From Oscillatoria princeps RMCB-10 (GTDB lineage Bacteria; Cyanobacteriota; Cyanobacteriia; Cyanobacteriales; Oscillatoriaceae), in contig JAHHHT010000036.1 in the NCBI GenBank assembly GCA_019359235.1, positions 24,245 to 88,244 of the forward strand: DNA of 64,000 bases, given 5' to 3'. A program made the translations under genes and the position numbers. The number at the start of each line of letters is the position of its first letter. The first letter of the stretch is position 1. Under the pieces are notes generated by a model. The model had not been told where the DNA came from and made no database searches. It was given only the letters and a program-made list of their open reading frames with translations. Positions 6,425 through 48,720 of this stretch are shown piece by piece.

Positions 6425-6496
6425 CCAGAAACCGGGGTTCTTCTGTAGGAAAGCATAATTTTCCCGCTTCCCCACCACAAGAAACCCGGTTTCTTC
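6425..6496. repeat. two copies of the palindromic GAAACCCGGTTTC (AGAAACCSGGKTTCT) hairpin repeat
   Basis: Perfect palindromes lie between the hspA 3' end and the glpK start. The same element recurs at 14772-14866, 25658-25692, 29177-29262, 37921-37954 and 48644-48720. Confidence 0.8.
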
Positions 6497-6550
6497 TGAC
6501 TTCACCCACTCCTTCCCCGCCCCCCTGGGAACGAAAAAAACCCCCCTCTC

Positions 6551-6590
6551 CCTTGGCGCTCTTGGCCTCTTGGCGGTTCGTTCGCTCAAA
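6551..6590. repeat. CTTGGCG heptamer tandem repeat (STRR-like)
   Basis: cttggcgctcttggcctcttggcggtt. The same heptamer array occurs at 8121-8185, 29291-29330, 38240-38282, 50769-50830 (reverse complement), 52900-52945 and 54140-54170. Confidence 0.75.
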
Positions 6591-6718
6591 AAATTATCCG
6601 CGAGCGCAGTTTCACCGGCTGCGCTCGCGGTTGTGCTCTCGTCTCAGGCAGAGACGCACGCTCCGTCACGTCTCTACCGGCTTTTTTAGGAGGAATGCAC
6701 CCAAACTCACGGAATTGC

Positions 6719-7285
6719 TCAGGATGCCGGAGCGGGCTCAGAGGCAGGAGTGGGTTCAGTGTGACTCACGTCAGGAGCGTGTTGCTTGACTCCTTGGCTC
6801 TGAGCTTCTAGAGTCGGCGAAACTTCTGCCCCAGGGATTGCGCCAGAGCTTTCACCGAAATTAATCCTCACCACTCGGCGCTGCGCTTCTTGCACCTTAG
6901 GCAGCCTCAGCGTCAAGATGCCATTCTTGTAATCGGCTTCCACCCGCTCGTTCTGAACCGGCACAGGAAGAGAAATCGTCCGCTCAAATTTCCCGTAACG
7001 GAATTCCGACCGGAAATAACCTTTTTCTTCCGCCTTGTGTTCGGATCGGTGCTCGCCGGCAATATAAACGGCGTCCCGAGTGACTCGGATATCCAAATCC
7101 TTCGCTTCCATACCGGGGATTTGCGCCCGCAGGAAGAGCTGGTCATCCGTATCTTGAAGTTCAACCGCAGGGGCCCAAGTCATCTCGTACTCCCGCCTGC
7201 CGCCTGACAGTTCCTCAAACAGTTCGTCAAACTGACGGCGTAACGTTTCTATTTCACTGAATGGTTGCCAACGTATTAATGCCAT
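6719..7285 (-). CDS. hspA: Hsp20/alpha-crystallin family small heat-shock protein with C-terminal Pro/Ala/Ser-rich tail
   Basis: 188 aa; N-terminal MALIRWQPFSEIETLRRQFDELF, alpha-crystallin core WAPAVELQDTDD...GILTLRLPK. Confidence 0.9.
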   Translation of the reverse strand: MALIRWQPFSEIETLRRQFDELFEELSGGRREYEMTWAPAVELQDTDDQLFLRAQIPGMEAKDLDIRVTRDAVYIAGEHRSEHKAEEKGYFRSEFRYGKFERTISLPVPVQNERVEADYKNGILTLRLPKVQEAQRRVVRINFGESSGAIPGAEVSPTLEAQSQGVKQHAPDVSHTEPTPASEPAPAS

Positions 7286-8032
7286 ACGTTCAGTTCCCTC
7301 CGTTACAGTTTATGGGTTCTCAATCTTTCAGGATTGCAGCAGTCTATCAGCTTACAGCCTATTTGGCTGTAAGCTCAATTTCGAGAAACCAATCGACCGG
7401 ACGCAAGAAAACCAGTTCAGCTGTGAGAGTGGCTGCAGAGAACTCACGGATCAGCGTTGCTGAGATGAGCGCTACTGGTTTCCTCGCTCACAATTTCATT
7501 ATGTCTCGCTGCACAGTGCATTCAGTGGGGGAAACCCTACTGTGTCAGTGGTATTGCCCGCACCTTTTGTGAGAGACACTTCCGGCGGCGGCTTGACGCA
7601 AATCTCGGGCTATTGTTGGGTTAGGCAAAGCGGAAACTTTTGCCGGAGTCTCAGCTTATCGCACCCGTTTCGATAAGCCAGACAGCCCTTGTGCGGGGTG
7701 AGTTGCGCCGCAACGCAACCAGCAGTGCGGGGAATATTTCTTGGGAGTTTAATCTGTTCAGTCGTCTGCTGCGCGAAAATAAAGGAACAGCTTGCCGGCA
7801 GCCAGAAGCCCGGTTTTCCCCCCCGCTAGCTGCTTCATATTTTTTGCGACATCTTGCTAACTTGCTTGACCGGCCTTTTTCAGTGCCGGCCTGGGAAGCA
7901 TTTCTGAGATAAAATACAGGCAAGGAATCCAGCAGCAGCGCGTTGCCTGCCGAGCCGGTTTGGTCGATTTAGCCCTTGAACTTGATTCAAAGAAGTGCCG
8001 CCAGAGCGAACAAAAGTAGGGGCGGGCTCACT

Positions 8033-8690
8033 ATAAATCTCTCGGAAAAGCCGAGAATTTTTATAAACCCGCCCCTGCTCTAGCAGTTCTAAATGATTTG
8101 TGCGAGTCTCTCTTTTCTTTGCTTGGCGCTCTACCCAAGGGGCGAGCCGCTAGCGCGTCTATGGCGTCTTGGCGGTTTATTAAAAAAAATAATACTCACT
8201 AGCAATCTCTCGGAGAAGCCGGGGAGATTTACAAACCGGCCCCTACCACAAGGGTTCACCCCGAGGGGCGGGTTAGCTAGCAATGTGTCGGGGAAGCTGA
8301 GGAGATTTATAGCAGTGGACAGCTCAGTAATGGACAAGGCCGGAACGCTGCCCTTACAAAGCCGCTGTAAGCGCTCCGCACTTCCGTAGATTGGAACAAC
8401 CAAGATGCCTGTCCTGCGAGGTATATCCGCAGCCAGTTAGGTTAGGACGTAGGACAGGCGTCTCGCCTGTCCCTATCCCTACTAGCAAGTGAGATGCCCT
8501 GTCCTTAACTGACTGTCCCTTGCTATATATCCGCAGGGACTGCGTTTGGCCTGCCCTCAATGTCTAATGTCCTAACCAATTTGGCTAGTGCTATATAAAC
8601 CGGCCCCTGCCACAAGGGTTCGCCCGCAGGGGCCGGTTCGCGAGAAATCTCTCGGGGAAGCGGAGGAGATTGATCAACCCGCCCCTACAG
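8033..8690. repeat. cluster of three copies of a composite hairpin repeat (AAATCTCTCGGrGAAGCsGrGGAGATT + ATAAACCsGCCCCTrC)
   Basis: Copies lie at 8033-8088, 8203-8325 and 8590-8690. Each carries two perfect inverted repeats, for example aaccggcccctgccacaagggttcgcccgcaggggccggtt. Related ATAAACCCGCCCC elements lie at 56740-56830 and 58985-59140. Confidence 0.7.
8436..8520. repeat. GGACAGGCGAGACGCCTGTCC-type palindromic repeat
   Basis: ggacaggcgtctcgcctgtccctatccctactagcaagtgagatgccctgtcc. Copies lie at 32283-32330, 38100-38200, 43900-43985 and 51838-51985. A derivative lies inside a coding sequence at about 40290-40350. Confidence 0.75.
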
Positions 8691-10187
8691 CTAGTGGCTG
8701 GACTTTTCTCCTAATTTGGGCGTCCTCGGAGTCAGGAGGCCATCTTTTAGGGCAGCTTTTGCTTTGTCCTTCTGGAGTTGAGCCGGCAGAGAAACGACAG
8801 GTTGGAACTGGTCGCAACGGACTTCAGAGCGCCAGTCGCCTCGCTGTGGCGGCCCAGCTGTGATGGGGGAAGAGGGATTTATTTTATAGCTTATCTGGAA
8901 TTCAATAATTTTAGTAAATCTAAAAATTGCCAGGGGGAGAAAGCCGAACGTGGAGCGGCAGTATGAACCGCCCTGCCGAACGCAGCAGCCGGGTGGCTCG
9001 CTCTGTGCTGAGATGCGAAAAATCCCAGAGGAGTCACAAGAAACCAGGTTTGTGGGGGTGGCTCAAAGGAGTCAGCTGGGTTGTGGACAAGCAGAGAGCC
9101 GGCAGGCACGCCGGTTCTGGCAAACTTGGAGAGCCGTGCGCCTGCCGCCTGAGGGCGGTGGGGAGGGATGGGGCCTGTAGCAAGTGAATTTGCGCAAAGC
9201 CCGGGGCTTGCCTTTCTGTGATTTTTGCCAGAAAATATTGCAGCCGGCCATCCCAACCTTTTTACAGGCTGCTGGCCGGCTAGACAGTTTTAAAGAGCAA
9301 ATCCGTTAGTTGCTGTTGATTGCCGTCTCTGCTGGCAGACGACCGGCTTTCTTCAGATTGGCACGATTGCTTGACTTTTTGCACTTTTTGCCCATTGCCG
9401 CCGGCAGCATCTCATGCGGCGGCAGCCGCTTGTGGCAAGCTGGCACAATCGTATAGAGCGGTTCTCAGTTGCACAAACCGCCGGGAAAGAAACTTAACCC
9501 CCCTAGCAAAAGCAGTTGCTCCCCTCCCCTTGAAGGGGAGGGGTTGGGGGAGAGGTCAATCTGTACCGCATCACACTAAAAATCCCTGTATGCAGCAGCT
9601 GCCTTTCAGCTGATGCCCGCAATCAGCCCGAGAAAACTTCACTTCACACCGGCTGAAAGCCAGAACAGCCGAGCTTGGAAAAAGCCGGCGCTCCGCACCT
9701 GTAATGCCGCGTTCATAAAAGAGTTGTTTGCCGCACTCTGTGCGAGTGCGGCTGTGCGCGGATAGCGCCCAAGGCAATACGGGTGAGAGAAAGCATCGGG
9801 TGTGCGGTTGAACAAACCGCCAGTATAGCAGAGAGAAGAGCGGATTCGGCATCTTTCTTCATGCGAGCTTCCGCCCACAGAACTAGCGCTCCTCTCTGAC
9901 CAGAAAGGTTTGATGTCGTTTGATGCCGCCAGAGGTGTGCCCAACTTTTCGGTTGGCGACACACTCCGGCCATCCTCCGCGCTCGCCGCCTGAACTTCTA
10001 GGGAACCGGGCTGACATCTGCAAGTGAGAATTGTCGCGGTTCCCTGACAGAGAGTTGCAATGGTTTAGAGGGCCCGTCTGAAAGCGGGGTGGGGGGAATT
10101 TTTTCATCTGTCTTCCTCCCGGTCGCCCCCCCTGACAGGCCATCGCCTTAACGGGAAAGGAAAGGGAAGGCAAGGCTCGGGCGCTTC

Positions 10188-10610
10188 TCAAGCAACAGCA
10201 GCGGTTTCTTCTCCGGATTCCGACTCGTCAGGCACAGCGGATTCACCTACGTAGATGAGGTGAATGTGTTTGTACCCCAGGCGGATTTCAAACTGATCCC
10301 CTGGCTTGAGTCCCATCTCTTTAGTATAATTTGACCCAATTACCAGCTGACCATTTTTGTGGACACTGACGCGATAAGTCGCTTCTCGGCCCCGGCCATC
10401 TTTGGTTCCCGTTGGGTCTAAGGCAATGCCCTTAGCCGCCAGCACCGCGTCGTAAAAATCGGTGAGATTGACTTTGACATTGCCACTCGAGCTGGTGCTG
10501 TAGTATCCGCAGCGCTTTGCTGTTTCCCGGCGCGGCAGGTGGGAAAGCTCTTTGACTTTTTGCAGGAGCGCCTTCCCGGTAAGGGTTTGGTATTCTTGTT
10601 CTGGTGCCAT
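10188..10610 (-). CDS. AbrB-family transcriptional regulator, cyanobacterial cyAbrB (CalA-like)
   Basis: 140 aa; C-terminal AbrB/SpoVT swapped-hairpin domain YRVSVHKNGQLVIGSNYTKEMGLKPGDQFEIRLGYKHIHL and N-terminal region typical of cyAbrB proteins. Confidence 0.85.
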   Translation of the reverse strand: MAPEQEYQTLTGKALLQKVKELSHLPRRETAKRCGYYSTSSSGNVKVNLTDFYDAVLAAKGIALDPTGTKDGRGREATYRVSVHKNGQLVIGSNYTKEMGLKPGDQFEIRLGYKHIHLIYVGESAVPDESESGEETAAVA

Positions 10611-12579
10611 AGGTTCTCCGAAAATTGTTCTTGGATCTCACGACAATCTAATTTAAGCAAAAATAGGTGCTGTTTGACAATAGGGTTTTTCGGGAAAAGC
10701 CAAAAAAGCAGCCAGCCTTGAGGGGCAACGGGTCAAGTCAGACTCAGATTGCCCCCCTTTGCTTTCGCTGGCGGGGCATCCCAGGACTTATGCCGAGGAA
10801 AGTTGCGGCGGTTTTGCGTCCCCTCCCTGTTTTCAGCTCTCGCAACCAGGAGTTGCGCTTGTCCGGGGTTGCCGGAAGGAATTGTGAAGAAATTCTCGCT
10901 GTTTTAAACAAAGGCGCTCTCATGGGGAGCCCCTAAACTGTTGAAGTTGTCTGGAAGCGGTCGCCTTTTTAGGGGATGGAGAGCGCCACGCCTTTACCAG
11001 TGGCTTCAAGGGCGGGTTTACCCAATCGGGTGCGGGCCGGTGCGTGCGAAGTGGAGATGGGGTCTTGCCGCACGCCGGGCTCCTTGGAATTCCGTCGGGG
11101 GCGAGCCAACTGCTGCGCAGAGTGCCGGCGAGACTAGACTGTCCAAAAAAGGCTCCCCTTCCGCAATATCACGTCCAGTTGATTGTCCGGCGAGCGGGAT
11201 TGAGGGCGAGAGGGCGGCAGGGGGGAAGAGGATTGAGGGGCAGTGGCTGAGAGGGGGAGAGCAATTAATTGCGGTCAATTGACCGGACACTATATAAACG
11301 AGATAAACGAGCAATTCCGGGGAGACGGGGGAATGGGGGAGGAGAAATTTTCTTCCATTCCTGGCACGCTCAGACGCTTCCAACCCTGTCCTCCAGACGC
11401 GGCTATCTCAGGACAACTCCGGTTTCGGCACTCCCCACCGGCTCGCCACCTCCCCCGGAAGGCAGGTTTTTTTCCCCTTCAACAGCGCCCAAACAGCACC
11501 GATTGAGGGAGCCGAAAGGCAAGCGCCACAACGGCTGAATCCGCACAGCTTGCAGCGCACCGGCAGGGGATTGTCAGCCGGTGCTGACGCCCGCTCCCAG
11601 TCAGGTGCCGGTCAGACAATTCAAAGCAAGCAACGCGCTCACCTCGCAACGCGCAACCCCACGGGCAGCAAGCGTACTGGCTCCTGTTTAGCCGCACAGA
11701 AATGCCACATTTGAGGTGAGCTTCACCCGCCATACTGCCTCGCACACCCGGGCGGCACCGCTGGCAAAACTGGCTTTAAAAATCGCCTGCGTGGCCACGC
11801 TGTTCTATCGTCTCAGGTGAATTGACCTTAAAAAAGACCCTCACGCCCATCCCCATCCCCAAAATGGGAGAGGGGAGAAAAAATCCTGTCTTTTTCTCAC
11901 TCCCCCTCACCCCAAGTGGGAGAAGGGGGCTGGGGGTCCCCTCTGGGGATGGGGAGAGAGGGGGGTGTTGCAGTGTGAAGTGCCGGTCTGCCAGAGACAT
12001 GATATTAGATGAGTATTTTTTCTCGACGCTCCTCCCGTCAAGCGCCAAAGGAAATTGCTCTTGTGAAGCACGCAAAACTGGCAAGCGCTGTCGCCCCACA
12101 CAGGAGGCGATTTTGTCAGCCGGCAACAGACCGGGCCTTTCAAACGGTATCGAGCGCCGGCTTTGAGGATATCCTTTTTGCTAAAGTGCAGATTTAGGCT
12201 CCTCAGTCAGGCCGGCACTGTCGGGCCAGCAGCACTAATAATAGCAGCCGGTCACGCTGGCACCGGCATAAAGAAAGTCTTTATCTTAAGAAGTCACAGG
12301 CGCATATAATATTGATTGCGCCAACCGCTGCGCGCGCCCGAATGCGGCATTGCTCGCACAGGGGAATTCGCTCGCCACAGGGCGCAGATGTCCTGTTTCC
12401 ATTCAGCCGGTGTCGCAGACGGGCAGCACTTTCTGCGAGCCCCTGTTCCCGCAGGTGCGGCTTTTGCCACTGGCGAGCCCCCAAACGGGGAGAAAGCCCG
12501 TTTGGGTGGGGAGCGCTGTTGGATATCGCCCGCGCTCGCCGAAGGCTCGGGATCTCTGTGGTTTATATTTGGACTGGAG

Positions 12580-13164
12580 TCAGCCAGCCTGCGCTTTGCC
12601 CCCCTTTCCAGAGGTGGCTGCAGTCTTTTTCTCCGGTTCAGAATCGGCAAACGCCGGTTTGAGCAATTTCCAAGCCTCTTCTGCCTCTGGCAGCAACCTG
12701 TCGAAGTCTACTTTGGCCGCTGCCAAGCTACATAAGGTTTTAGCAAAAGCCTTATCTTGAGCTAGCTGGATTTGTTCAGGGGTTAAAGGAGTCATCGAAA
12801 AGACGGCTTCAATTAGCGCGATATATTCGCTCGCCTTTTTCTGCTGATCTTGCAAATCCGCTCTCTTTAAGGCGAATTCAGCTACGGTTCTGGCGGCCTT
12901 CTCTATAGGTGACAAGTCCTCGCCAGCATCGGCCTGCTGATTTGATGCGGTTTTCGGTGACTCTACGACGATCAGATCCTTGGCTCCCAGTCCGTCAGGA
13001 AAACTATTGCTGTCGATTTCAGAAGTCTCTTCGCTCATCATGCGCATCACCTCATCTAGCGCTAGCGCCCGCGTTTTTTCGCTATCTTCTTTACCCGGAA
13101 CCGTAATGGTTAGACCGGGATGGTCTTTGACTGTGTAGGTTACCGTTAATTTACGCCGGCCCAT
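12580..13164 (-). CDS. hypothetical protein (acidic, Ala/Lys-rich)
   Basis: 194-aa ORF with protein-like composition, and no competing long ORF on the other strand apart from GC-rich shadow ORFs. No domain is recognised. Confidence 0.45.
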   Translation of the reverse strand: MGRRKLTVTYTVKDHPGLTITVPGKEDSEKTRALALDEVMRMMSEETSEIDSNSFPDGLGAKDLIVVESPKTASNQQADAGEDLSPIEKAARTVAEFALKRADLQDQQKKASEYIALIEAVFSMTPLTPEQIQLAQDKAFAKTLCSLAAAKVDFDRLLPEAEEAWKLLKPAFADSEPEKKTAATSGKGGKAQAG

Positions 13165-14771
13165 AAGTTATCCTCGGGTTAGACTATTTGGTATTTTACA
13201 TTCTAACAAATTCTCTCGCAGGAAGTGCGCGTGTGAGTGGAAATCCGGGCTCGGTATCGGGTTGGTAAATGGTGGGGAACGCTTCCAGGATTCCGGAGGC
13301 CGGCCTCCTTTGTCAAGCACTTCCAGAAACTGCCGCCTATTTGATGCTAAGGCGATCGGGAGCATTCCATTTTTACATCTCCGGCACAGGCGGGACGCCT
13401 GTTGCGGGAGGCCCGGAACGCACGCGACTGCAAGCTTCTGTAAATTTTATCGCTTTTGGCCGGGCCCCTAATTTTATAATGGCTCTCTCAGAACCTGGTC
13501 TTTAGGCTTTGAGCGAGTCAAACACTGAGAGCGCCAGCGCTCCCTCCCAGCCTCTAGGCGTGCAGTCTTTTTCACCCCCCTCAAAAACCTGCCTAAAGCC
13601 ACTTTTAATGCTTGCTTCTGCAACGGGTGCCGGAAATTCCGGGATGACTCATGCTGCCGGTGCGTCGCCTGTCTTCCCGATTCCACCGGCACCAAAAACT
13701 GGCCCTTATCTACCCTCAACTGCGGATGTTTACCGCTCGACAAAGCAAGCCAGATGTGGGAATTCCTCTGTGAGTTCAAGCGGTTGAAATTGCGCCTCCT
13801 TAAAAGGCGCTTCCAGAAACACAGTGATGCCGGCGCTGCCCCGAATTCGTTGGGCGCAAGCCTTATCTTCCAGAACACTTGACCGTTCAAGGGTGGCGCG
13901 ATAGCCGCTGGTCTTCATCCAAAGCTTCGGCGAGGAAGCCAGTGAGAGCGTCAGCTAGCGCGCGCAGGTCAACGATTAAACATCAGCTGAATAACGCGGG
14001 TTTCTGTGCCTGGAAACACCGGTTTCTGGGATTGCCCCGAGCGGTTCTGTAGCGTGAGAGCCTGTCGAAAGGCGGCATGAGCTGCGCTCCTGAGAGCTGC
14101 CACCCACAAGTCACTAACCGAGCGCCAGCCTTGGGCGGGCGACTCTTCTGCGCCAGTCTTCTATGCCGGTGAGGGCACCGGCTACAGCCTCAACACTGAC
14201 CCGCCGAATTTTACCCCGATACCGGGCGGTTGCAACAGTAGCAACCCCGGTGGCAATCCAAGTCATCCTCAATCTGCGGTCAGCGATGCTCGTCTGAGGT
14301 TGAATGCCACACAGGAGAGCCCCGGTTGAAATCCTCACAGTTTGTCGCCCCACCGGCTCGGACAGTGGCACTCCGATCATTTTTGCTTGAACAATCATAA
14401 TATCTCTGAGGCGGGGCACTTGGCATTGGGCCTCGCGCATTGCCCATCCGCACCGCCCCGGCCATACTATAGATTAATCAACCGGACATAGTATCAGATA
14501 GCGCGGCGAGACATACCCCTCCCTCACCCGATGCCGGTGCATTTCCTTCCCCGCCCGGTCGCTCGGATTGCAGCACAAGCCGGTGGCTCCAGGGTTTTAT
14601 TATAAGCAATCTACAGGATTTTATATAATTTATTTAAAGAGAAAGAGTTGTGAAAGTGCCGGCTAGAGCGCCGGTCAAGTATTCTTCTGAAGCGGTGAGA
14701 AACCGGGGGCAGTCTCCGTGCCGGTAGCCGCCCTACGGCTATAAGACCCGAATTTAGGTGCTCCCATTCTA

Positions 14772-14866
14772 AGAAACCCGGTTTCTGGGAGAATAAGAAA
14801 CCGGGTTTCTTTGGGCTGAAACGCCCGAATTTACAGGCTCCCCTCCCAAGAAACCCGGTTTCTGGC
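14772..14866. repeat. three copies of the GAAACCCGGTTTC palindromic repeat
   Basis: aagaaacccggtttctgggagaataagaaaccgggtttctttgg...caagaaacccggtttctgg, immediately downstream of the recG 3' end. Confidence 0.8.
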
Positions 14867-15030: not shown

Positions 15031-17565
15031 TCAAGTCCAAAGCGCCCCACCCATTAACTTTTGGTAGTGCAGCTCCAGATCCGCCTTCATCTGCGGCCAG
15101 CTGTCCAGCGTTGCGTCCACCTCCATCACCTTCTCAGCGGCATCCCTAGCCAAGATCAAAACCTCCTGATCGTCCACTAAACTGGCCAGCATAAAATCAG
15201 GCAAGCCCGACTGGCGAGTGCCCAGCACCTCACCGGGCCCGCGCAGGCGCATGTCCATCTCGGCAATAAAAAAGCCATCTTGCGACTGCGCCATTACATT
15301 TAGCCGGTGGCGGGCGTCCGCTGACGCCTTGGGACTGGCCAGCAGCAAGCAGTAGGACTTGTCAGCGCCGCGACCGACGCGCCCCCGCAGCTGGTGCAGC
15401 TGGGACAGCCCGAATCTCTCCGCATTTTCAATGAGCATGACTGTAGCATTGGGCACATCCACACCCACTTCCACCACCGTAGTTGCCACGAGAATTTGAG
15501 TCTTGCCAGAGCGGAATTTGCCAATAGCCGCCTCTTTCTCAGCTGAAGTCAGGCGTCCGTGGAGCAGCCCCACCTGGAATTCCGGGAAAACCACGTCCTG
15601 CAGCCGCTGGTACTCCTCAATGGCAGATTTCAAATCCAGCTTTTCCGATTCTTCCACCAGGGGCAGCACCACATAAACTTGACGGTTGCTGACAACTTCC
15701 CGGCGGATCAAGTCGTAGGCGTGGGTGCGCTCTTGACCCGAAAGTACCGTTGTTTGAATCGGTTTCCTTCCCGGCGGCAACTCGTCAATTTGACTGACAT
15801 CCAAATCGCCGTGCAGCGTCAGCGCCAGCGTTCGAGGGATGGGAGTGGCCGTCATCGTCAGCACGTGGGGCACCCCGTCAACGCCTTTTTGCTGCAATTT
15901 CGCCCGCTGCTCGACGCCAAACCGGTGCTGCTCGTCGATGACGATCAATCCCAGTTTGTGGAAGCTAACGGTTTCTTGAATCAGGGCGTGAGTGCCGACT
16001 AACACCGGCAGCTCTCCAGTTTGCAGCCCGGCGTGGATTTGCCGGCGCTTCGAGACTTTGGTCGAGCCGGTGAGCAGCTCCACCGGCAGGTGTAGCAAAT
16101 TTAACCAAGACACCAACTTTTTGTAGTGCTGCTCTGCCAGCACCTCAGTGGGAGCCATGAGCGCCGCCTGGTAGCCAGATTGAATCGCCGCCAGCATAGC
16201 CACCACAGCCACCACCGTCTTGCCGGCACCCACATCCCCCTGCACGAGCCGGTTCATCGGTTCCGGCTTTTGCAAGTCACTGAGGATTTCGTTAACCACC
16301 CGCTGCTGGGCATTAGTCAGCTTAAAAGGCAGCAGCTTGTAGAACTTGTCAATCAGCTTGCCTTTGGAGCGAAGCTTGCTGCTATTCTGGGCAGAGCGCT
16401 GGCCGTAGCGGCGGCTGAGCAGTCCCAGCTGCAGGTAGAAAAACTCGTCGAAGACCAGCCGGCGTCTCGCCTCTTGCAGGACTTCGCGCTCAGGTGGGAA
16501 GTGGATATTGGCGATCGCCTCGTGTAAGTTCATCAGCCCATAGCGATCGCGCACTTCCGCAGGCAGGGGGTCTTTGATGTGGCTGGCGGAGGGCAGCGCT
16601 GCGGAAATCGCCTTTCTCACCACCTCCGCCCCCACCCCTTCCGTCAGGGAGTAAACCGGCAGCAACCGCCCCACTGCCATCGATTCTATAGCGCCGTCGG
16701 CGTCGTCAAGGACTTCCAGTTGCGGGTCGTCCAGCGTTGTGCCGTATTTATTTTGTTTCACCAAGCCAGACGCCGCCACCGTAGCGCCGATTGGGTACAG
16801 GCGTTTTTGTTCCTCAAGCCAAGCGCGAGAGCTAAAGCGACCGGCGAAAAAGCGGCTTATTTTAAGTTGACCCGTGCGGTCGGTCAGAACCACCTCTAGA
16901 ATGGTTAATTTCTTATTGCGCGGGCTAGTAAAGCAGTTGCATCGCTTCACCGTTCCCACAACCGTCACCGTCTCTCCAGGCTCCAACTCGCGAATATTAA
17001 CCTGGCGGGCGTAGTCAACATGGTCGCGGGGGTAGTAGAAAAGCAGGTCGCGCACACTCAACAGCCCTAATTTGGCCAGACGCTCCGCATTCCTTGGCCC
17101 CACACCGGGCAAGCGGGTCAGGGCTTGCTCGAGGGTCACGGTCGGAGTGCAGCCTACCGGACTCAGGGGCGCAGTTCGCGGCTGTTTCCCATTGGAGGTT
17201 GGGGATTGAGGGTTGCTGCCGTTCTCCTCCGCTTTTGTGCTCTGCGGCTCCTTCTGTGCCTCAGAGCGGTCGCAAACCCGCTGCATCTGGAGGAGGAACA
17301 TGCGAGCGTCTGCTATCAAGCTCTCTCGCTCATCGAGATTCAGCTCGGGATAATTGGCAAATTGCGCCGCCATTTGTTGCCACCTGCGCCGGTAATGCGG
17401 CGACAGCCCGGAGGGCGGTCGGCTAAAGCTTTCGCCAAGAAACTCACTAAAGCGCTTTTCTTTGCCTACCAAATCCTTAAAGCCGCGTTCGGCTTCAATG
17501 GACAGCGCTTTTTGCAATCGCACCCAATCTGGTAATTCTGTTCCCACAGCGTTTCTCCTACACAA
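15031..17565 (-). CDS. recG: ATP-dependent DNA helicase RecG
   Basis: 844 aa; superfamily-2 helicase motifs LVQGDVGAGKT, DEQHRFGV and the TATPIPRT/QLHQLRGRVGRG C-terminal domain. The size and wedge-domain N-terminus fit cyanobacterial RecG rather than Mfd. Confidence 0.92.
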   Translation of the reverse strand: MCRRNAVGTELPDWVRLQKALSIEAERGFKDLVGKEKRFSEFLGESFSRPPSGLSPHYRRRWQQMAAQFANYPELNLDERESLIADARMFLLQMQRVCDRSEAQKEPQSTKAEENGSNPQSPTSNGKQPRTAPLSPVGCTPTVTLEQALTRLPGVGPRNAERLAKLGLLSVRDLLFYYPRDHVDYARQVNIRELEPGETVTVVGTVKRCNCFTSPRNKKLTILEVVLTDRTGQLKISRFFAGRFSSRAWLEEQKRLYPIGATVAASGLVKQNKYGTTLDDPQLEVLDDADGAIESMAVGRLLPVYSLTEGVGAEVVRKAISAALPSASHIKDPLPAEVRDRYGLMNLHEAIANIHFPPEREVLQEARRRLVFDEFFYLQLGLLSRRYGQRSAQNSSKLRSKGKLIDKFYKLLPFKLTNAQQRVVNEILSDLQKPEPMNRLVQGDVGAGKTVVAVVAMLAAIQSGYQAALMAPTEVLAEQHYKKLVSWLNLLHLPVELLTGSTKVSKRRQIHAGLQTGELPVLVGTHALIQETVSFHKLGLIVIDEQHRFGVEQRAKLQQKGVDGVPHVLTMTATPIPRTLALTLHGDLDVSQIDELPPGRKPIQTTVLSGQERTHAYDLIRREVVSNRQVYVVLPLVEESEKLDLKSAIEEYQRLQDVVFPEFQVGLLHGRLTSAEKEAAIGKFRSGKTQILVATTVVEVGVDVPNATVMLIENAERFGLSQLHQLRGRVGRGADKSYCLLLASPKASADARHRLNVMAQSQDGFFIAEMDMRLRGPGEVLGTRQSGLPDFMLASLVDDQEVLILARDAAEKVMEVDATLDSWPQMKADLELHYQKLMGGALWT

Positions 17566-17580
17566 CTTTAAAATCCACCA

Positions 17581-20841: not shown

Positions 20842-20842
20842 A

Positions 20843-24978: not shown

Positions 24979-25596
24979 TCACAGCTTTTTAGGGGCAGCA
25001 CGCCCCAGCAAGCGAATCAGGGCAACGCCGGTCAGAGCGGAAACGGCAAGCCAGGTCACAGCCAAACCCACTAACTCGCCGAGGAACAGGCGCGTGGACA
25101 GGCGAACAGCCCAGCCCACAGCCCAGCCCAGGGGCAGCCCCAACGCCCAGCTGGCGGCACTGGCAAAGATCCAAGTCCCATCTTTGGCGACCTGCTTTTG
25201 GATGGTCAGCCACTGCGCCAGTCCAGTCAAAGCCCCCACTAGCGCCCCGTCGAAAACCCCATGCACCAGCCTGAATGCGATATTTTCGTTTGTTGGTGCC
25301 ATCCAGCCCAGGGCACCCAGGCTGCTCGCCCCGATTAAGCCCCAGCTGAGGGCACTCGCTAATATCCACCGGCTCGCTTGGGGGAAGAGCTGTCTGAGGA
25401 CAGCCCACTGCGCCAAGCCAATCGCCGCACCGCCGGCCAACCCCTGCACCACCCCCACATAAGGTCTGACACCGATTTCAATAAACAGCAGACTCACCAA
25501 AAAGCCCACCAGCGTGAGAAACACCCACTGCAACCAGAAACTCCGTTCCTTGCTGGCGAGTTTTACAGGGGCATAGTAATAGAACGTTGCTGACAT
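24979..25596 (-). CDS. hypothetical integral membrane protein with internal duplication
   Basis: 205 aa with about 6 hydrophobic segments. It contains the repeated motifs GxAxGLAQWxxL and WxxxxALSWGLIG / WIFASAASWALGL. Confidence 0.6.
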   Translation of the reverse strand: MSATFYYYAPVKLASKERSFWLQWVFLTLVGFLVSLLFIEIGVRPYVGVVQGLAGGAAIGLAQWAVLRQLFPQASRWILASALSWGLIGASSLGALGWMAPTNENIAFRLVHGVFDGALVGALTGLAQWLTIQKQVAKDGTWIFASAASWALGLPLGWAVGWAVRLSTRLFLGELVGLAVTWLAVSALTGVALIRLLGRAAPKKL

Positions 25597-25657: not shown

Positions 25658-25692
25658 CAGAAACCGGGTTTCTTTCAGAAACCCGGTTTCTA
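25658..25692. repeat. two copies of the GAAACCCGGTTTC palindrome
   Basis: ccagaaaccgggtttctttcagaaacccggtttcta, located at the 3' end of the GHL10-like gene. Confidence 0.8.
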
Positions 25693-29176: not shown

Positions 29177-29262
29177 AAAAAACCGGGGTTCTTGAAAACC
29201 CGGTTTCTTAGAGGTGACAAGAAACCGGGGTTCTTGAAGAACCCCGGTTTCTGGCCCCCATT
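29177..29262. repeat. four copies of the GAAACCCGGTTTC-family palindrome directly after the argG stop
   Basis: aaaaaccggggttcttgaaaacccggtttctt...gaaaccggggttcttgaagaaccccggtttctgg, followed by a CTTGGCG heptamer array at 29291-29330. Confidence 0.8.
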
Positions 29263-29384
29263 CCATGACTTTGTTTGTGAGAGCCCTCTCTTTTTTCTTT
29301 TCTTGGCGCTCTTGGCGTCTTGGCGGTTTATTTAAGAAGTAATTTTCACAAATCAAATAGAACCGCCACAGCACCCCGCAACCG

Positions 29385-30014
29385 CTAATCCCCACTCTCC
29401 AGTTCCTTGTTGCGAGACTCCAGCCACAGGGGAACGGCAATCCACGCTGTTGCCAGAAGTAAGGCAACAGCAGCAAATCTGGCTGCTAAGCTGACTAACT
29501 GCTCCAGCGGCAAAATTCGCCCCGCAAAGAAGGACAGCGTGACCATCACTGACGCCCACGCTGCAGCCCCTGCCAAGTTGTAGGCCGTAAATTTGAGGTA
29601 GGGCATTTCCGCAACGCCGGCTAGGGGGCTAGCAAAAATCCGCAGTAAGGCAATGAACCTGCCCACAAATACGGTCTTGCCAGCGTTTTCGCTAAACCGA
29701 GTTTTGAGTTTTTGGAGCTGTTCTTCCGGAACGCGGAAAATTCGCCCCGCACTCAGCAGAAAGGGCCAGCCGCCATACCTGCCTATCCAATAGCCGAAGT
29801 TCCCGCCCAAGGCTGCGCCCAGGATGGCGCTCCCCAGGACGAACCAGTAACTCAGCTCGCCGCTACCTGCCAGAAAGCCCCCGGCTAGGGTGATGGTCTC
29901 ACCGGGTAGCGGCACTCCCAGGTTTTCTAGCAAGATTCCCAGAAACACTGCCCAGTAGCCGTATTGATGGGCAAGTTCCTGAATGGTATCCAGCGATACA
30001 AATTCCAATGACAT
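29385..30014 (-). CDS. DedA/SNARE-associated (TVP38-like) membrane protein
   Basis: 209 aa; AVFLGILLENLGVPLPGETITLAGGFLAG and GRFIALLRIFASPLAGVAEMPY are the conserved DedA motifs. Confidence 0.88.
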   Translation of the reverse strand: MSLEFVSLDTIQELAHQYGYWAVFLGILLENLGVPLPGETITLAGGFLAGSGELSYWFVLGSAILGAALGGNFGYWIGRYGGWPFLLSAGRIFRVPEEQLQKLKTRFSENAGKTVFVGRFIALLRIFASPLAGVAEMPYLKFTAYNLAGAAAWASVMVTLSFFAGRILPLEQLVSLAARFAAVALLLATAWIAVPLWLESRNKELESGD

Positions 30015-32282: not shown

Positions 32283-32400
32283 CTGACGCCGGACAGGCGT
32301 CCCGCCTGTCCTCCCGCCTGTCCGGTGCGCAGGCGGGTGCGCAGGCGAGTGCGCAGGCGAGTGCGCAGGCGAGACGCCTGCGCTACGCCTTTTTGGGGCT
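32283..32400. repeat. GGACAGGCG-family palindrome followed by 4-5 x 12-nt tandem repeat (GCGCAGGCGRGT)
   Basis: ggacaggcgtcccgcctgtcc...gtgcgcaggcgggtgcgcaggcgagtgcgcaggcgagtgcgcaggcgagacgcctgcgc, lying right where the Uma2-like gene loses its 3' end. Confidence 0.8.
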
Positions 32401-32458: not shown

Positions 32459-32917
32459 CTACCCCCTGCTGAAGTCATTGTCGCATTCTTTTGGGCTTCT
32501 TTGCACAACCGGGATGCTCTCTTCCGGTGCGCCTTCCACATACCCGTCATCGCTGAGCCGCGACTGTCCGCCGGCACTGGGTTCCAGTCGCAGGAGGGCA
32601 TCTGGTTGGGGTTCGTTGTCCACATCCAGGCGCACTGTGGCATTGTCGCCCAACCGAACGCCTGGTGTGGCAGTACGGTAGACCCACAGCCAGCCGATTA
32701 TAGTGCTGTGCGGTTCAGCGTGAGGCTCAAAACGTAACGGCGACGCCATATGCACCACTCCTTCAATCAGTTCAGCTTTCTTAATGTGCGGCATAGCTTG
32801 GTAGCGCCGCTCGAATTCATATCGAGTCAGCCGATCTCCATTCTCTAGGGGCGGCAATTTTTTTGGATCTCTCGCCGGCAATTGCTCTGGGTTGCGCACT
32901 AATTTTTCGACTGTCAT
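32459..32917 (-). pseudogene. Uma2/DUF820 family (putative restriction-endonuclease-like) protein, 3'-truncated
   Basis: The N-terminal 125 aa match the DUF820 layout (LTRYEFERRYQAMP...KAELIEGVVHMASP...NEPQPDALLRLEPSAGGQSRLSDDGYVEGAPE). No frame supplies the expected continuation of roughly 60 aa. The gene instead abuts the repeat block at 32283-32400. Confidence 0.55.
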
Positions 32918-33049: not shown

Positions 33050-33900
33050 TGCCGGTTGTGTGTGACAGAAATTTTCGCAAAAATTGCACAAATTTCTGGA
33101 TTTATGCTAACCTAAGGATAATGGAAAAGGTGCGGCAATATCAGGTCACTAATGGGCCACATTCCATCAACTTCCTTCCCCGACAATCGCCTCGCATTCC
33201 CGTGGTATTCCCCTTGTTCCCAGCATCTGTAGGGTGCGTTCCGCGTGAGTGTACTCCTTATTTGTGTGCGTAAATTGATAAGGCGGAACGCACCCCCCGG
33301 TTGCGGTGCGTTCCGCGTGCGAGCCGGCACCATTCTGCGTGCGAGAATGGATTACGCGGAACGCACCCTACTTTCTACAGCTAGTTCCCCGGCGATTAGC
33401 CAGGTTCCTGGCGATTGGAAAGATGTTGTTGGCGCTCTCCGTGAGGGGTTAGACCTACAGCTAGTTCCTCCGAGATTAGCTAGGTTCCTGGCGATTGGAA
33501 AGATGTTGTTGGCGTTCTCCCTGAGGGGTTAGACGTTCTCTCTGGGAAGTAAAGAACGGCGTTGCATTGGCGAAGCGAAATTTCGGGCGCAGTCGTAAAG
33601 ATCCGCGCCGCCAATGCTTCGCCCCTACATCGGATCTTGTGTAGGGGCGAAGCATGAGCGCGACTGTTTCTGCAATCGGTGAAAAGATTACATCCGCTCA
33701 TGCTTCGCCCTTCCCCCTAGCGCTAGCTACATATAACCTTTAAAAAACCAAGCCAAAAAGGGGGTATAGGGTGGGTAAGACCCTACATCAATTCGCCAAC
33801 AGCTTCTTTCCAATCGCCGGAGAACTAGCAAAATCGCCTGGGAACTAGCTGTAACAGCTGAATATGCAACGCCATCCTCAATGCGCTCAAATGCGCTCAT
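33050..33900. repeat. non-coding repeat island (TAGGGTGCGTTCCGC hairpins, 2 x ~75-bp tandem unit, GGGGCGAAGCATGAGCG hairpins)
   Basis: 33225-33370 carries inverted gtagggtgcgttccgc/gcggaacgcaccctac units. 33360-33540 carries two tandem copies of ctacagctagttcc..gattagc.aggttcctggcgattggaaagatgttgttggcg.tctcc.tgaggggttagac. 33590-33720 carries cgaagcatgagcg palindromes also found at 62290-62430. Confidence 0.75.
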
Positions 33901-37545: not shown

Positions 37546-37866
37546 ATGTTGAATGAAACCCAAAACACCAACCAGACGTTACCCTCTACTTCTGAACCTG
37601 ATGGCGCTGTTCTGGACATGGAGCGAGAGTTCATGGAAGAACGCTTTCGTCAAGCTCGTCTCAGCTTCAACCTGACTCTCGGACTGACAGCAGTGAGTGC
37701 TTTCATCAGTGTTGTGGGTGTCGGACTTTTGTTTGCGGGGAAAGTTCCAGAAGGAAGCGTCACGACAGCTGGGGGGTTGAGTTCAAATCTTGTCAGCGTG
37801 CGCTTATTAAGGCTGACTAAGGAAACCAATGACCGGCTGGACAAAATGGCTCACGAGAGAATGTAG
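37546..37866 (+). CDS. small hypothetical protein with one predicted transmembrane helix
   Basis: 106-aa ORF divergent from the HTH-ATPase gene. It has a hydrophobic segment LTLGLTAVSAFISVVGVGLLFAG and is followed by GAAACCCGGTTTC palindromes. The call is tentative. Confidence 0.3.
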   Translation: MLNETQNTNQTLPSTSEPDGAVLDMEREFMEERFRQARLSFNLTLGLTAVSAFISVVGVGLLFAGKVPEGSVTTAGGLSSNLVSVRLLRLTKETNDRLDKMAHERM

Positions 37867-38290
37867 GGTGGGTTCCGCGCTATCTATTATCGCACATAAT
37901 GGGTTGGGTGAGAAACCGGGTTTCTTGAAGAAACCCGGTTTATTGGGGGCAGGGGGGTGGGTTCCGCCTTATGGATTTCCGCACACAAATCAGGGGTGCG
38001 GTCAGGCGGAACCCACCCTACTTACTATTGTAACCTGTATCGCGTGCCGGTGGCAAGAAAGCCGATTATTATAGCAATAGACAGTCAGTTTAGGACACTG
38101 GGACACGAGATACAAGGTATAGGCGTAGGGCAGGCGTCTCGCCTGCCCTTAAGGTCTCTGGGACAGGCGAGACGCCTGTCCTACGTCCTAACCTAAGTGG
38201 CTGCTGCTATATAGATTTTAGGAGGCAGAGCCTCCTTATTGGCGCTCCCAACCTTGGCGTCCTTGGCGTCTTGGCGGTTCCTCATTAATC
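37861..38290. repeat. intergenic cluster of dispersed repeats (GGGTGGGTTCCGC hairpin pair, GAAACCCGGTTTC palindromes, GGACAGGCG palindromes, CTTGGCG heptamers)
   Basis: Inverted gtagggtgggttccgc (37865) pairs with ggcggaacccaccctac (38005). The other elements are agaaaccgggtttcttgaagaaacccggttt (37921), gggcaggcgtctcgcctgccc / ggacaggcgagacgcctgtcc (38130-38190) and ccttggcgtccttggcgtcttggcggtt (38250). Confidence 0.8.
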
Positions 38291-38317
38291 CCAAATCACT
38301 CCCAAATTTCCTGCCAC

Positions 38318-39802: not shown

Positions 39803-39914
39803 TTCTCTTCTGGTTGATTCACCTTAATAATGAACCGCCAAGAGGGTAGGGTGCGTTCCGCTAAGCGGAACGCACCCTACTCAATTTTAAAGGAGGGAAA
39901 GGGAGAAAGGGCTG

Positions 39915-43873: not shown

Positions 43874-43899
43874 CCCCTACCTCTTTCTCCCTAGTTCGG

Positions 43900-43985: not shown

Positions 43986-44005
43986 TGTTCCCTTCTGCAA
44001 TAAAT

Positions 44006-45649: not shown

Positions 45650-45963
45650 GGTAAAATCTGTTAAAGAACTACAGATATTCTGCCCGTTTGCTTGCCGCCA
45701 GTTTGCAGCGCCGTCACCGGCACAGGGGAAACCAGCCGGTGGGGGCGCAGAATTTTCAAGCGCTGTTGCGGCGCGATACTAAAATAGCCAAGTTCCCAGT
45801 TACAGGTCATTGCAATCCAGATCCCCCCAAACCCCCCTTAAAAAGGGGGGCTTTGACGGTGTTCCCCCCCTTTTTAAGGGGGGGCTAGGGGGGGATATCG
45901 CCTGAGTCACTTGTATCTAGCAACTTAAGTTAAAATGTAGAGGGTTTAAGGTTTTGTGAGAAT

Positions 45964-46584: not shown

Positions 46585-46708
46585 GCAGAAAAAAAAGCCC
46601 TTCCGGGCACCCCTTCCTTCCCCGCCGGCTGTGAAAAATCAGCATTTCCTGACAGCCGGCGCTTAATTGTGCGCTCGCAGACAGAATTGAAAATCTCCCC
46701 TGCCGATA

Positions 46709-47392
46709 ATGTCCGGAACTTACATAGCAGCCACCGGCATACAGAGGTTAAACTATCCGAAACTGCGACCAGATGGTGTTCTGATGACAAAATACAGCAC
46801 GCAGGAGCTAATCAAAATCTTGGCTGACGAGCGCCGCGCCTGCCTGAAGGGACAGCGCCTTAACCTGGCTGCGGCTCCTTCTACAGGCAACCCTGTAATC
46901 GACAAGTTTCTCAAAGCGGAGGGGTTCCAAAAGTTCACAGCCTATCAAGATTTTAAAGCCACCGTCCACCGCTACCAGATCGAGCATCAGGTATCGGGGA
47001 TTGTCTGGCGTCAGCTGACGCTCAAGGGCAAGACTGTGGGCATCCCCCAAGTGGACGACCAGCTGATTGCCCTCCCCAGCGACATCCAGACGCTGAAGAA
47101 GGCTAAGCCTAAAATCCTGGCATTCTGGAATCAAGTGACAGCGGGGATGGACTTGTACCTGAGCGTTCACGGCGGCAAAGATTACCGGCAAGTCCAGCTG
47201 GCTGATGTAGACCAGATAGCCCTGGGCACGGAATGGGCCTGCTTGTGCGCGTGGGAGAACAGACATTTCCTGGAAATCGTCTTGCAGCTGGCATGGGGAA
47301 AGCCAGAGGAAGCCGCTTACCGGCGGGGGTGGCCAGATTCTGGCAGCGAGTATATCCATGCCGTAAATCCAGGCTGCCGGCCCATTTGTTAA
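46709..47392 (+). CDS. hypothetical protein (likely start at internal Met, coordinate 46784)
   Basis: 227-aa ORF with coherent composition (MTKYSTQELIKILADERRACLKGQ...). No domain is recognised. Confidence 0.5.
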   Translation: MSGTYIAATGIQRLNYPKLRPDGVLMTKYSTQELIKILADERRACLKGQRLNLAAAPSTGNPVIDKFLKAEGFQKFTAYQDFKATVHRYQIEHQVSGIVWRQLTLKGKTVGIPQVDDQLIALPSDIQTLKKAKPKILAFWNQVTAGMDLYLSVHGGKDYRQVQLADVDQIALGTEWACLCAWENRHFLEIVLQLAWGKPEEAAYRRGWPDSGSEYIHAVNPGCRPIC

Positions 47393-47491
47393 TATCAATA
47401 TTTAACTCTCTCGTTCCCAGAGGTAGGGTGCGTTCCTTGAGTCCCGCATAGAATCACGGTGCGGAAAAAGCGCGGAACGCACCCTACTCCA

Positions 47492-48535
47492 TCAGGACAA
47501 ACGCTGGCACAGCAGCACGCCAAACCACCGCTGCGGGTCAGTCCAAACTCGCACCGGCACCAACCCTCGCCCTTCCAGGTACTCCTGCATCTCATCCAAA
47601 TCGAACTTGCGCGAAATTTCTGTTAAAATCGTCTCCCCGGCACCCAACTCAACACTTAAATCCAGAGCCCGTAAATAAACCGTTTGCTCTCCCAAACTCC
47701 GCAAGTGCATCTCAATTTGGCGCTGAACTTCATTATAAAAAGCCCAGTGCTCAAATTGCGAAGTATCGAAATTTCCCTCAAAGCGCCAGTTCAGGTGGCG
47801 CAGCATATTCAGATTAAACTCAGACGTCACCCCTTGAGCGTCACTGTAAGCCGGCTCCAGCACCTCCTTTGATTTGTGCAAGTCAATCCCCAGCAGGAAA
47901 AAATCGCCCGCCTGCAGAGCGCCGGCAATTTGCGAGAAAAACACATCGCACTCCTGGCGGTTCAGATTCCCCAAAGTGCTGCCGAGAAAACAAATCATCC
48001 GCGCCGCCAGGGGCGAAGGAGTCAGTTTTGACAGCGCCAGCTCGTAAGTGCTCACCAACCCGTGAACCTCCAGCGACGGATAATCCGCCAGCAGTTCGCG
48101 TGCGCTACTTTCCAGGATGCCGGCACTGACATCAATTGGCAGATAGCGCAGCGGGCAGCCCAACTCGCTGTAAGCGTCCAAAATAATCCGAGTTTTCGTC
48201 GAACTTCCGCTGCCCAGTTCCGCGATTTCGCACTCGCCTGTCAGTTCGGCAATCTCGCCGGCACACCGGCGCAAAATCGCCGCCTCCGTGCGCGTCAAGT
48301 AATATTCCGGCAACTCGCAAATCCGCTCGAACAGCATCGAGCCCCGGTCATCGTAAAAATAGCGCGGCGGCAGAGATTTCGGACTCTCACTAAGCCCGCT
48401 GACGATATCGCTGCCCAGGGTCAATTCTGTTTCCAAAAGCGCAGTCGGACTGAGCAGATGCTCTATGCGCAAACGTTCCTCAGTGGTGCCCGGTTTGCGG
48501 ATACCGGTAGAAGTTAAATTGTTTGGCGATTGCAT
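47492..48535 (-). CDS. egtD: L-histidine N-alpha-methyltransferase (ergothioneine biosynthesis)
   Basis: 347 aa; EgtD hallmark YFYDDRGSMLFERICELPEYYLTRTE plus the SAM-binding GSGSSTKTRIIL. Confidence 0.9.
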   Translation of the reverse strand: MQSPNNLTSTGIRKPGTTEERLRIEHLLSPTALLETELTLGSDIVSGLSESPKSLPPRYFYDDRGSMLFERICELPEYYLTRTEAAILRRCAGEIAELTGECEIAELGSGSSTKTRIILDAYSELGCPLRYLPIDVSAGILESSARELLADYPSLEVHGLVSTYELALSKLTPSPLAARMICFLGSTLGNLNRQECDVFFSQIAGALQAGDFFLLGIDLHKSKEVLEPAYSDAQGVTSEFNLNMLRHLNWRFEGNFDTSQFEHWAFYNEVQRQIEMHLRSLGEQTVYLRALDLSVELGAGETILTEISRKFDLDEMQEYLEGRGLVPVRVWTDPQRWFGVLLCQRLS

Positions 48536-48643
48536 GATAATTCTGCTAGACGCACCAGCGGCTATACAACACAGCCTTTCCCGTCACCCTCACAAGCGTG
48601 ATTTTCCAGGCTGCTCTATTCTCCCACACCGTAATGGGGATTC

Positions 48644-48720
48644 TACAGAAACCCGGTTTCTTGGAGAAACCGGGTTTCTTGGCTGGTTTCTTGGCAGTTT
48701 CTTGGCAGCCCTCCTACCTA
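48644..48720. repeat. GAAACCCGGTTTC palindromes followed by GGTTTCTTGGC tandem units at the egtB 3' end
   Basis: cagaaacccggtttcttggagaaaccgggtttcttggctggtttcttggcagtttcttggcag. Confidence 0.8.

Follow-up and report, generated by a model that had tools for sequence, protein, structure and literature searches.

AGAAACC repeats in an Oscillatoria princeps genome segment as a probable REP-like family of extragenic inverted pairs

A 64,000-nucleotide stretch of the Oscillatoria princeps RMCB-10 genome (assembly GCA_019359235.1, contig JAHHHT010000036.1, positions 24,245 to 88,244; this whole stretch is called the window here and coordinates are counted from its first letter) carries a short palindromic sequence, AGAAACC(C/G)GGTTTCT, in six clusters between genes. 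An earlier note on this DNA had described the sequence as a perfect palindrome found almost exclusively at gene 3' ends and had suggested that it acts in termination or mRNA stabilisation. The question raised by this locus is whether the copies are terminators selected gene by gene, mobile elements, protein binding sites or members of a family of extragenic repeats. Our analysis favors the last answer: the AGAAACC repeats are probably a family of the repetitive extragenic palindromic (REP) type, or of the type of the REP doublets known as REPINs, and their working unit is an inverted pair rather than a single palindrome.

The degenerate 13-mer core GAAACCSGGKTTC gives 21 strand-matches at 12 positions in the window, where 0.02 are expected from dinucleotide-preserving shuffles, and with up to two mismatches allowed there are 15 units in six clusters, in agreement with the earlier count of at least 15 copies. 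The conserved unit is 15 nt long, and its centre base, C or G, gives each unit a slight asymmetry. The unit is palindromic as had been claimed, while the G/T variant that had been included in the claim, GAAACCGGGGTTC, is not a perfect palindrome by itself. All 15 units in the window lie outside credible genes. Our multi-genome sample consisted of 118 loci of 8 kb among the matches listed in an exact-match scan, one genome per species, with crude gene calls based on open reading frames (ORFs); together with the window it contains about 326 units, few of which are in ORFs, and those are mostly at ORF ends or are chance matches in non-cyanobacterial sequence. The family is thus a short extragenic palindrome present in many copies, as are REPs and the bacterial interspersed mosaic elements (BIMEs) that they form. 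No Rfam model matched the clusters at gathering thresholds, and below threshold the matches were only to eukaryotic miRNA-precursor models, which represent a generic long hairpin. The motif string, in DNA or RNA letters, had no occurrence in a relevant context in the searchable literature.

The centre bases of neighbouring units are complementary in nearly all cases: in the 118 loci and the window there are 142 GC or CG centre pairs versus 17 GG or CC pairs. In the G-then-C pairs the unit starts are mostly 49-53 nt from each other and a spacer of about 36 nt separates the units; this is the long form, of about 66 nt, whose interior is variable in sequence and 34-38 nt in length; the C-then-G pairs are mostly 18 nt apart, start to start, with a 3-nt loop, and form a tight doublet. 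When folded, adjacent units in every window cluster pair into a 15-16-bp stem (-19 to -51 kcal/mol). Among 40 distinct tight doublets, changes on both sides occur at 7 of the 15 stem pairs, in 18 cells, and among 46 long forms the inter-unit stem also has 18 both-side cells; in neither case did any of 500 shuffles reach this level. Separate single-unit hairpins have little or no covariation. About 20 of some 87 mutated positions have a matching change in the partner unit, and although the centre pair supplies most of the covarying cells, other positions contribute as well, for example AGAAACCGGGTTTTT paired with AAAAACCCGGTTTCT, a combination that recurs in several genomes. The covariation across units, and the compensated changes at orthologous sites described below, favor the inter-unit stem, so that two inverted units form one hairpin that evolves as a unit, as in REPINs. 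The likening of paired copies to REP/BIME elements in the earlier note is borne out by the inverted pairs, their clustering and the covariation of partner units. Folding of the 36-nt spacers is no more stable than that of shuffles or of neighbouring sequence (mean z of -0.17 versus -0.19), and the long form is therefore a stem that closes an unstructured loop.

The inverted pairs also build mosaics of alternating orientation, with tandem amplification in Lyngbya (L021) and in Planktothricoides (L165, CP159837.1). The latter array, at 4836-6123, has sixteen units in 1.3 kb, and a unit of about 100 nt is repeated five times in it, comprising a C-unit, a 34-nt linker with a HIP1 site, a G-unit and a 36-nt spacer. 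It resembles amplification of the BIME-2 type.

The long-form spacers contain weak positioned A-run and T-run signals about 7-8 bp inside each unit, and these bear on a different reading, in which the pairs are double-stranded DNA binding sites for a dimeric host protein, such as a nucleoid-organising or topology factor, and the hairpin is a by-product. Exact conservation of the sequence around nearly random spacers would agree with paired sites of this kind, and so would the 49-53 bp spacing, which is about five helical turns, and the lack of an RNA-strand asymmetry. However, the 18-nt spacing breaks helical phase, independent sites do not predict compensated changes in the partner unit, the family is patchy among related genera, and no candidate protein was found. 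We consider binding sites of this kind very unlikely.

The position of the clusters relative to genes is less strict than had been proposed. In the earlier note every cluster was within about 100 nt downstream of a stop codon; we find that the distance from the upstream stop to the nearest unit is 225, 168, 36, 14, 45 and 35 nt for clusters 1 to 6, numbered in order of position, so that four of the six comply. Two clusters are in convergent spacers and four are in same-strand spacers. Divergent spacers make up 10% of the intergenic bases of the window and contain none of the six clusters, which is expected often enough under random intergenic placement (P = 0.52) that the window by itself is uninformative on 3' ends; the significant feature within it is the restriction to intergenic DNA. 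The 118 loci are more informative. In their same-strand spacers, multi-unit clusters are nearer to the upstream stop in 38 of 48, 30 of 40 and 23 of 29 cases when the minimum ORF size is set to 100, 150 and 200 aa respectively (p = 6e-5 for the first), the medians being 43-58 nt to the stop and 150-181 nt to the next start. The share of spacers that contain a multi-unit cluster is 27-29% for convergent, 16-18% for same-strand and 10-14% for divergent spacers; convergent spacers are occupied two to three times as often as divergent ones, which is significant at ORFs of at least 100 aa (p = 0.003) and not with stricter sets. Between 9 and 16 clusters lie in divergent spacers, and in Trichormus (L060) a unit directly abuts the start codon of a D-Tyr-tRNA deacylase gene. 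The 3'-side tendency is therefore real and not exclusive: the bias in the original claim held, and the words "almost exclusively" did not.

This tendency is the main attraction of the view that the clusters are dedicated, orientation-independent terminators or 3'-end mRNA stabilisers, selected gene by gene, with one hairpin design reused. The 15-bp hairpins are strong, their median position in same-strand spacers and their preference for convergent spacers are as expected, and all four genomes that we compared have retained the GHL10 doublet. Cyanobacteria are not known to have Rho, so that such hairpins could matter more for transcript ends. The clusters also resemble intrinsic terminators in being GC-containing hairpins shortly past a stop. 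They differ in that their sequence recurs at many genes and in that no T-run follows the hairpins: a consensus terminator scan of the window does not list the clusters, giving only marginal partial matches at 29186-29201 and 48660-48682, and terminator-like sites in the window are not above shuffle levels. The missing T-runs and the scan rule out canonical hairpin-plus-U-run terminators. Furthermore, cluster 1 lies beyond a probable separate terminator, since hspA has an apparent hairpin and T-run of its own before the cluster (read by eye and absent from the scan list; kept in Oscillatoria sp. PCC 10802), and cluster 6 is inside a probable operon, between egtB and egtD. Some orthologous spacers do without the element (the egtB-egtD spacer of L117, and that of cluster 1 in PCC 10802), copies occur in divergent spacers or at a start codon, and no G.U strand asymmetry is seen. 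It is the exact sequence that is conserved, not structure alone, which argues for recognition by a protein over independently evolved terminators. The terminator reading is overstated, and we judge dedicated terminators or stabilisers to be an unlikely explanation, although one with a real chance of being right.

The history of the clusters was followed by site-by-site synteny between the window and Oscillatoria sp. PCC 10802, the metagenome genome L125 and Oscillatoria sp. Prado101, relatives in which the ArgG protein is 96-97% identical; at third codon positions of argG the identity with PCC 10802 is 91.5%. PCC 10802 has no cluster 1: its orthologous spacer lacks the units and is about 110 nt shorter. 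In cluster 2 of PCC 10802 a compensated change, from G-C to A-T, has occurred in the 53-nt pair, and the third unit has decayed. The doublet of cluster 3 is present in all four genomes with exact units and the loops ttc, ttg, gaa and ttc. Cluster 4 has 4, 2+2, 2 and 4 units across the four genomes. At the orthologous doublet a compensated change has turned a T-A pair into G-C in the window, and the centre bases of the two units are exchanged in Prado101. At cluster 5 the window has a doublet where PCC 10802 has one unit, and the two sites differ cleanly by 18 nt. Clusters are thus characterized by persistence at orthologous sites with local turnover, and no recent bursts of transposition. Persistence does not extend to a conserved position across genera, which was rejected: the egtB-egtD orthologous spacer of a distant cyanobacterium (L117) has no unit, and where the motif is shared ahead of the D-Tyr-tRNA deacylase gene, the two spacers are from close relatives.

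Presence and absence at an orthologous site is also what would be expected if the long form of about 66 nt were a miniature inverted-repeat transposable element (MITE), with its 15-bp ends (AGAAACCSGGTTTCT) acting as the terminal inverted repeats of a putative DDE insertion sequence and the doublets being deletion products or copy junctions. The conserved ends around a variable interior of fixed length (34-38 nt) point the same way, as does the patchy distribution across phyla, which suggests horizontal spread. On the other hand, the filled and empty sites compared, where alignments were poor, show no target-site duplication, and neither a parent element nor a transposase is near any of about 160 clusters. 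Dispersed copies in the same genome have almost unrelated interiors, palindromic ends are unusual for terminal inverted repeats, and the long form is shorter than the typical 70-300 bp (PMC3733652). Taken with these points, a MITE origin appears quite unlikely.

The REP-like reading has its own difficulties, and the following results weigh against it. The GTAG/CGTC tag that marks REPs is lacking, as no flanking position in the AGAAACC family has more than 37% of any one base, and GT stands before AGAAACC in 9.5% of cases on the inner flank and 3% on the outer flank; a hidden GTAG tag was rejected on these base frequencies. The population of near-identical full-length copies within a genome that is characteristic of REPINs was not found: long-form spacers are 57% alike within one genome versus 53% between genomes, which gives no sign of recent dispersal, and only tandem copies have similar spacers (69%). 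The lack of a target-site duplication at the poorly aligned filled and empty sites counts here as well. In the comparison of O. princeps with PCC 10802, units are 90% conserved versus 85% for the remainder of the spacer, a difference that is not significant (p = 0.14), and purifying selection on the units was not retained for this reason. Mismatches give 14 G.U and 11 A.C on the sense strand, so there is no transcribed-strand asymmetry; selection at the RNA level was not retained because this difference is not significant. The enrichment on the transcribed strand that had been suggested as a check cannot work, since units and pairs read nearly alike on both strands. Finally, no REP-associated transposase gene adjoins the clusters, and a scan of about 1.2 Mb for the Y1-transposase motif (HUH motif plus catalytic tyrosine) found nothing; both results are weak evidence, as a gene of this kind is normally present in one copy. 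Because the tag test failed and no transposase was found, we class the AGAAACC family as untagged REP-like, a kind of repeat already recognised, including in cyanobacteria.

The genes beside the clusters do not suggest a partner. Ten single genes that are bracketed by clusters are housekeeping genes, and those that recur beside clusters include Uma2, D-Tyr-tRNA deacylase and signalling proteins. Uma2 genes (PF05685, a putative endonuclease) adjoin clusters in four unrelated loci, at L018 520-1083, L052 1404-1997, L058 2587-3207 and L118 432-1049, and there is a Uma2-family gene in the window at 32459-32917. Expansions of Uma2 occur in Cyanobacteria and Chloroflexota, the same two phyla as the AGAAACC motif. 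We rejected Uma2 as a partner; the association is probably due to chance, given its inconsistent geometry and the huge expansion of the family.

Among the matches listed, the motif is overwhelmingly found in filamentous cyanobacteria of the Oscillatoriales and Nostocales, with genera such as Microcoleus, Lyngbya, Okeania, Trichodesmium, Aerosakkonema, Hormoscilla, Laspinema, Calothrix, Scytonema, Brasilonema and Stigonema. The same matches include at least nine loci labelled Chloroflexota, with 51-69% GC and almost no HIP1 sites, and one Planctomycetaceae contig with a doublet. Seven of the nine Chloroflexota loci have correctly alternating pairs, and for this reason the family is probably genuinely present in that phylum. 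The family is patchy among genomes: about 22 kb around recG contain 16 units in Planktothricoides and no unit in Nostoc sp. MG11, O. acuminata PCC 6304 or Microcoleus sp. FACHB-672. Viral contigs gave 30 single copies in 2.9 million, which is the chance level, and the plasmids of PLSDB gave no doublet.

A short sequence shared by several genera and arranged in inverted pairs past genes might be taken for a DNA uptake signal for natural transformation. The uptake sequences of Neisseria and Haemophilus are often inverted pairs downstream of genes, and they are also common within genes. In contrast, AGAAACC units are essentially absent from coding DNA, even though about 74-78% of the sequence is coding, and the family is absent from several related genomes, which leaves uptake signals with almost no chance of being the explanation.

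The abundance of short repeats typical of cyanobacterial genomes is shared with HIP1 and the short tandemly repeated repetitive (STRR) sequences. HIP1 (GCGATCGC) is an 8-mer common within genes and STRRs are tandem heptamers, whereas the AGAAACC unit is an intergenic 15-mer in inverted pairs; HIP1 counts are independent of the presence of the AGAAACC motif, and the Chloroflexota loci carry the latter with almost no HIP1. The repeat had not been recognised as HIP1 or STRR in the earlier note, and it is indeed neither, in sequence or in organisation. The small dispersed repeats SDR1-8 of Nostoc punctiforme, from the work of Elhai et al. in 2008 (Genome Res 18:1484), are reportedly very short hairpin-forming repeats, with eight consensus sequences of 21-27 nt, that are dispersed in the genome and nested in other repeats. 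Nesting in another repeat, as in cluster 5, is a likeness of the AGAAACC family to SDRs, to which we relate it by description only. The SDRs of Elhai are cited in PMC3733652 as untagged REP-like repeats.

REPINs are REP doublets that form hairpins (Bertels and Rainey 2011, PMC3116915). REP systems, together with tyrosine transposases of their own, have been described from Cyanobacteria, and REPs with a GTAG tag also from Chloroflexi and Planctomycetes (PMC3733652, PMC6006769); the cyanobacterial REP-associated transposases belong to subclasses 2.4, 2.7 and 2.8 (Quentin et al. 2018, PMC6006769), and GTAG-tagged REP dimers are 1-5 bp or 20-100 bp apart (Di Nocera et al. 2013, PMC3733652). The AGAAACC family occurs in the same phyla as the GTAG-tagged REPs (Cyanobacteria, Chloroflexi, Planctomycetes) and shares with the REP/BIMEs of enterobacteria and pseudomonads and with REPINs the short extragenic palindrome in high copy, the inverted pairs and clusters of alternating orientation, two linker classes, a pair that evolves as a unit, persistence at orthologous sites and a preference for convergent and same-strand spacers. 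It differs in having a unit of just 15 bp that is itself palindromic and in that no gene for a REP-associated tyrosine transposase (RAYT) was found. The absence of the tag argues against identity with families GTAG-12, GTAG-15 and GTAG-16, which were compared by description only. REPIN families are usually lineage-specific, whereas the exact AGAAACC sequence spans cyanobacterial orders and Chloroflexota.

In our reading the 15-bp palindrome is the building block and an inverted pair, either the tight doublet or the long form of about 66 nt, is the element that lasts. In single-stranded DNA or RNA, two blocks pair into a 15-bp stem. Pairs persist at their intergenic sites over long periods, and local events there convert a singlet to a doublet, amplify units in tandem, or let them decay and be lost. 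Locations 10-60 nt past stops and in convergent spacers are most likely those where hairpins would be tolerated, as opposed to promoters and 5' leaders. There the elements may act as orientation-independent RNA hairpins at 3' ends that slow exonucleases or cut read-through, a role demonstrated for the REPs of E. coli. Cyanobacterial orders and a second phylum have the exact 15-mer in common although the spacers are near-random, which implies sequence-specific recognition by a protein; candidates would be a REP-associated transposase-like enzyme or another DNA-binding factor.

A bolder version of this proposal is that the 15-mer is the recognition site of a putative protein common to filamentous cyanobacteria and Chloroflexota, one that is not a GTAG-dependent REP transposase and that keeps the palindromes intact while the interiors drift. 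The family would then be a cross-phylum hairpin-repeat system, distinct from REP/RAYT, and either a long-lived replicator or a domesticated host function. We consider this version rather unlikely.

The six clusters of the window show the range of arrangements, and the names that had been given to the flanking genes were confirmed (HSP20, RecG, GHL10, ArgG, an ORF with CyanoTRADDas_TM, and an EgtB-like protein with DinB_2 and FGE-sulfatase domains), as were the earlier coordinates of five clusters; those of cluster 5, placed at 37921-37954, were about 10 nt off. Cluster 1 (6427-6494) is a long-form pair, AGAAACCGGGGTTCT (6427-6441) and AGAAACCCGGTTTCT (6480-6494) with a 38-nt spacer, whose inter-unit stem has a folding energy of -31 to -41 kcal/mol; the genes on either side are hspA (6719-7285, minus strand), the stop of which is the one 225 nt away, and an FGGY kinase gene (4810-6363, minus strand), the start of which is 64 nt away. 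Cluster 2 (14772-14863), downstream of recG (15031-17565, minus strand) and 168 nt from its stop, has three units with centres C, G and C at 14772, 14796 and 14849; units two and three are a long-form pair 53 nt apart, and there is a decayed half-unit near 14687. The stretch from 7300 to 14400, also downstream of recG, is gene-poor, with short ORFs and many repeats, and is similarly sparse in PCC 10802; an ORF for an AbrB-like regulator (10188-10610) lies within it. Cluster 3 (25659-25691) is a hairpin doublet of a G-unit, a 3-nt loop and a C-unit (-28 to -30 kcal/mol), 36 nt past the stop of the GHL10 gene (25727-27076, minus strand) and 63 nt ahead of the start of a 205-aa gene (24979-25596, minus strand).

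Cluster 4 (29178-29252) has four units as two doublets, the second of which (29220-29252) is AGAAACCGGGGTTCT tga AGAACCCCGGTTTCT, and lies between the convergent argG (27962-29164, plus strand), 14 nt past its stop, and a VTT-domain gene (29385-30014, minus strand). The ARAGORN program reports a selenocysteine tRNA (tRNA-SeC) at 29178-29272 on the minus strand, which we treated as an artefact, almost certainly correctly, because it coincides exactly with the four stacked palindromic units. In the argG spacer of Prado101 there is a half-unit duplication similar to that seen in cluster 6. Cluster 5 (37911-37943) is a doublet, AGAAACCGGGTTTCT tga AGAAACCCGGTTTAT, located 45 nt past the stop of the ORF at 37546-37866 (plus strand) and nested between copies of a GTAG-tagged repeat (GGGTGGGTTCCGC). 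An 81-aa JGI gene call at 37829-38074 (plus strand), without a Pfam match, is made of cluster 5 and the GTAG repeats; it is probably spurious, and the much shorter orthologous spacer of PCC 10802 has no such call. Cluster 6 (48647-48705) has a doublet of a C-unit, a 3-nt loop and a G-unit (48647-48679), after which half-units GGTTTCTTGGC are arrayed in tandem as far as 48705; it lies between egtB (48714-50039, minus strand), 35 nt past its stop, and egtD (47492-48535, minus strand), 112 nt ahead of its start. The right half-unit with its flank is repeated in tandem about three times at 48672-48705, directly after the doublet, which suggests replication slippage at the hairpin. The genes at 47492-50784 (minus strand) encode a class-II glutamine amidotransferase (EgtC-like), the EgtB-like protein and EgtD (histidine methyltransferase), and are probably an ergothioneine operon that contains cluster 6.

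Other repeats share the window with the AGAAACC family. A GTAG-tagged family, GTAGGGTG(C/G)GTT(C/A)CGC (also GTAGGGTGCGTTCCGC; (G)TAGGGTG(C/G)GTT(C/A)CGC), has 19 copies where 0.4 are expected, at 33230-33370, 37864-38020, 39847-39879, 47424-47486, 51382-51396, 51798-51830, 62056-62070 and 62689-62917. Its pairs are 18 nt or 48-54 nt apart, which is the geometry of the AGAAACC pairs, and they occur in the same types of spacer, mostly convergent; it is probably a canonical cyanobacterial REP. A third family, also GTAG-tagged and starting with GTAGGRCAGGCG, has 12 copies where 0.6 are expected, at 8449, 32303-32386, 38125-38184, 40297, 40962, 43923 and 51858-51983, including inverted pairs such as 38125/38173, and is found in PCC 10802 as well. 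All four copies of a 27-nt repeat, CTTGGCGnnCTTGGCGTCTTGGCGGTT, are on the plus strand (6552-6578, 29302-29328, 38253-38279 and 52910-52936); each copy is 0-141 nt past the stop of a minus-strand gene, and for three of them an AGAAACC cluster is present in the same spacer. This repeat may be a strand-specific element of 3' untranslated regions.

If the REP-like reading is true, the AGAAACC repeats would be a very widespread family of hairpin repeats in filamentous cyanobacteria and some Chloroflexota, and O. princeps could have on the order of a thousand units or more, a figure extrapolated from the density in the window and not counted. Repeats of this kind would break short-read assemblies and give rise to false gene and tRNA calls, such as the tRNA-SeC and the 81-aa ORF, and they would probably shape the 3' ends of mRNAs and the expression of genes inside operons, as at the egtB-egtD spacer. 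The family does not found a new category, since REP-like repeats without a tag are a known kind, in cyanobacteria too. It would be unusual for mobile DNA in having no GTAG tag and in keeping an exact 15-mer across orders and in a second phylum around spacers that are almost unrelated.

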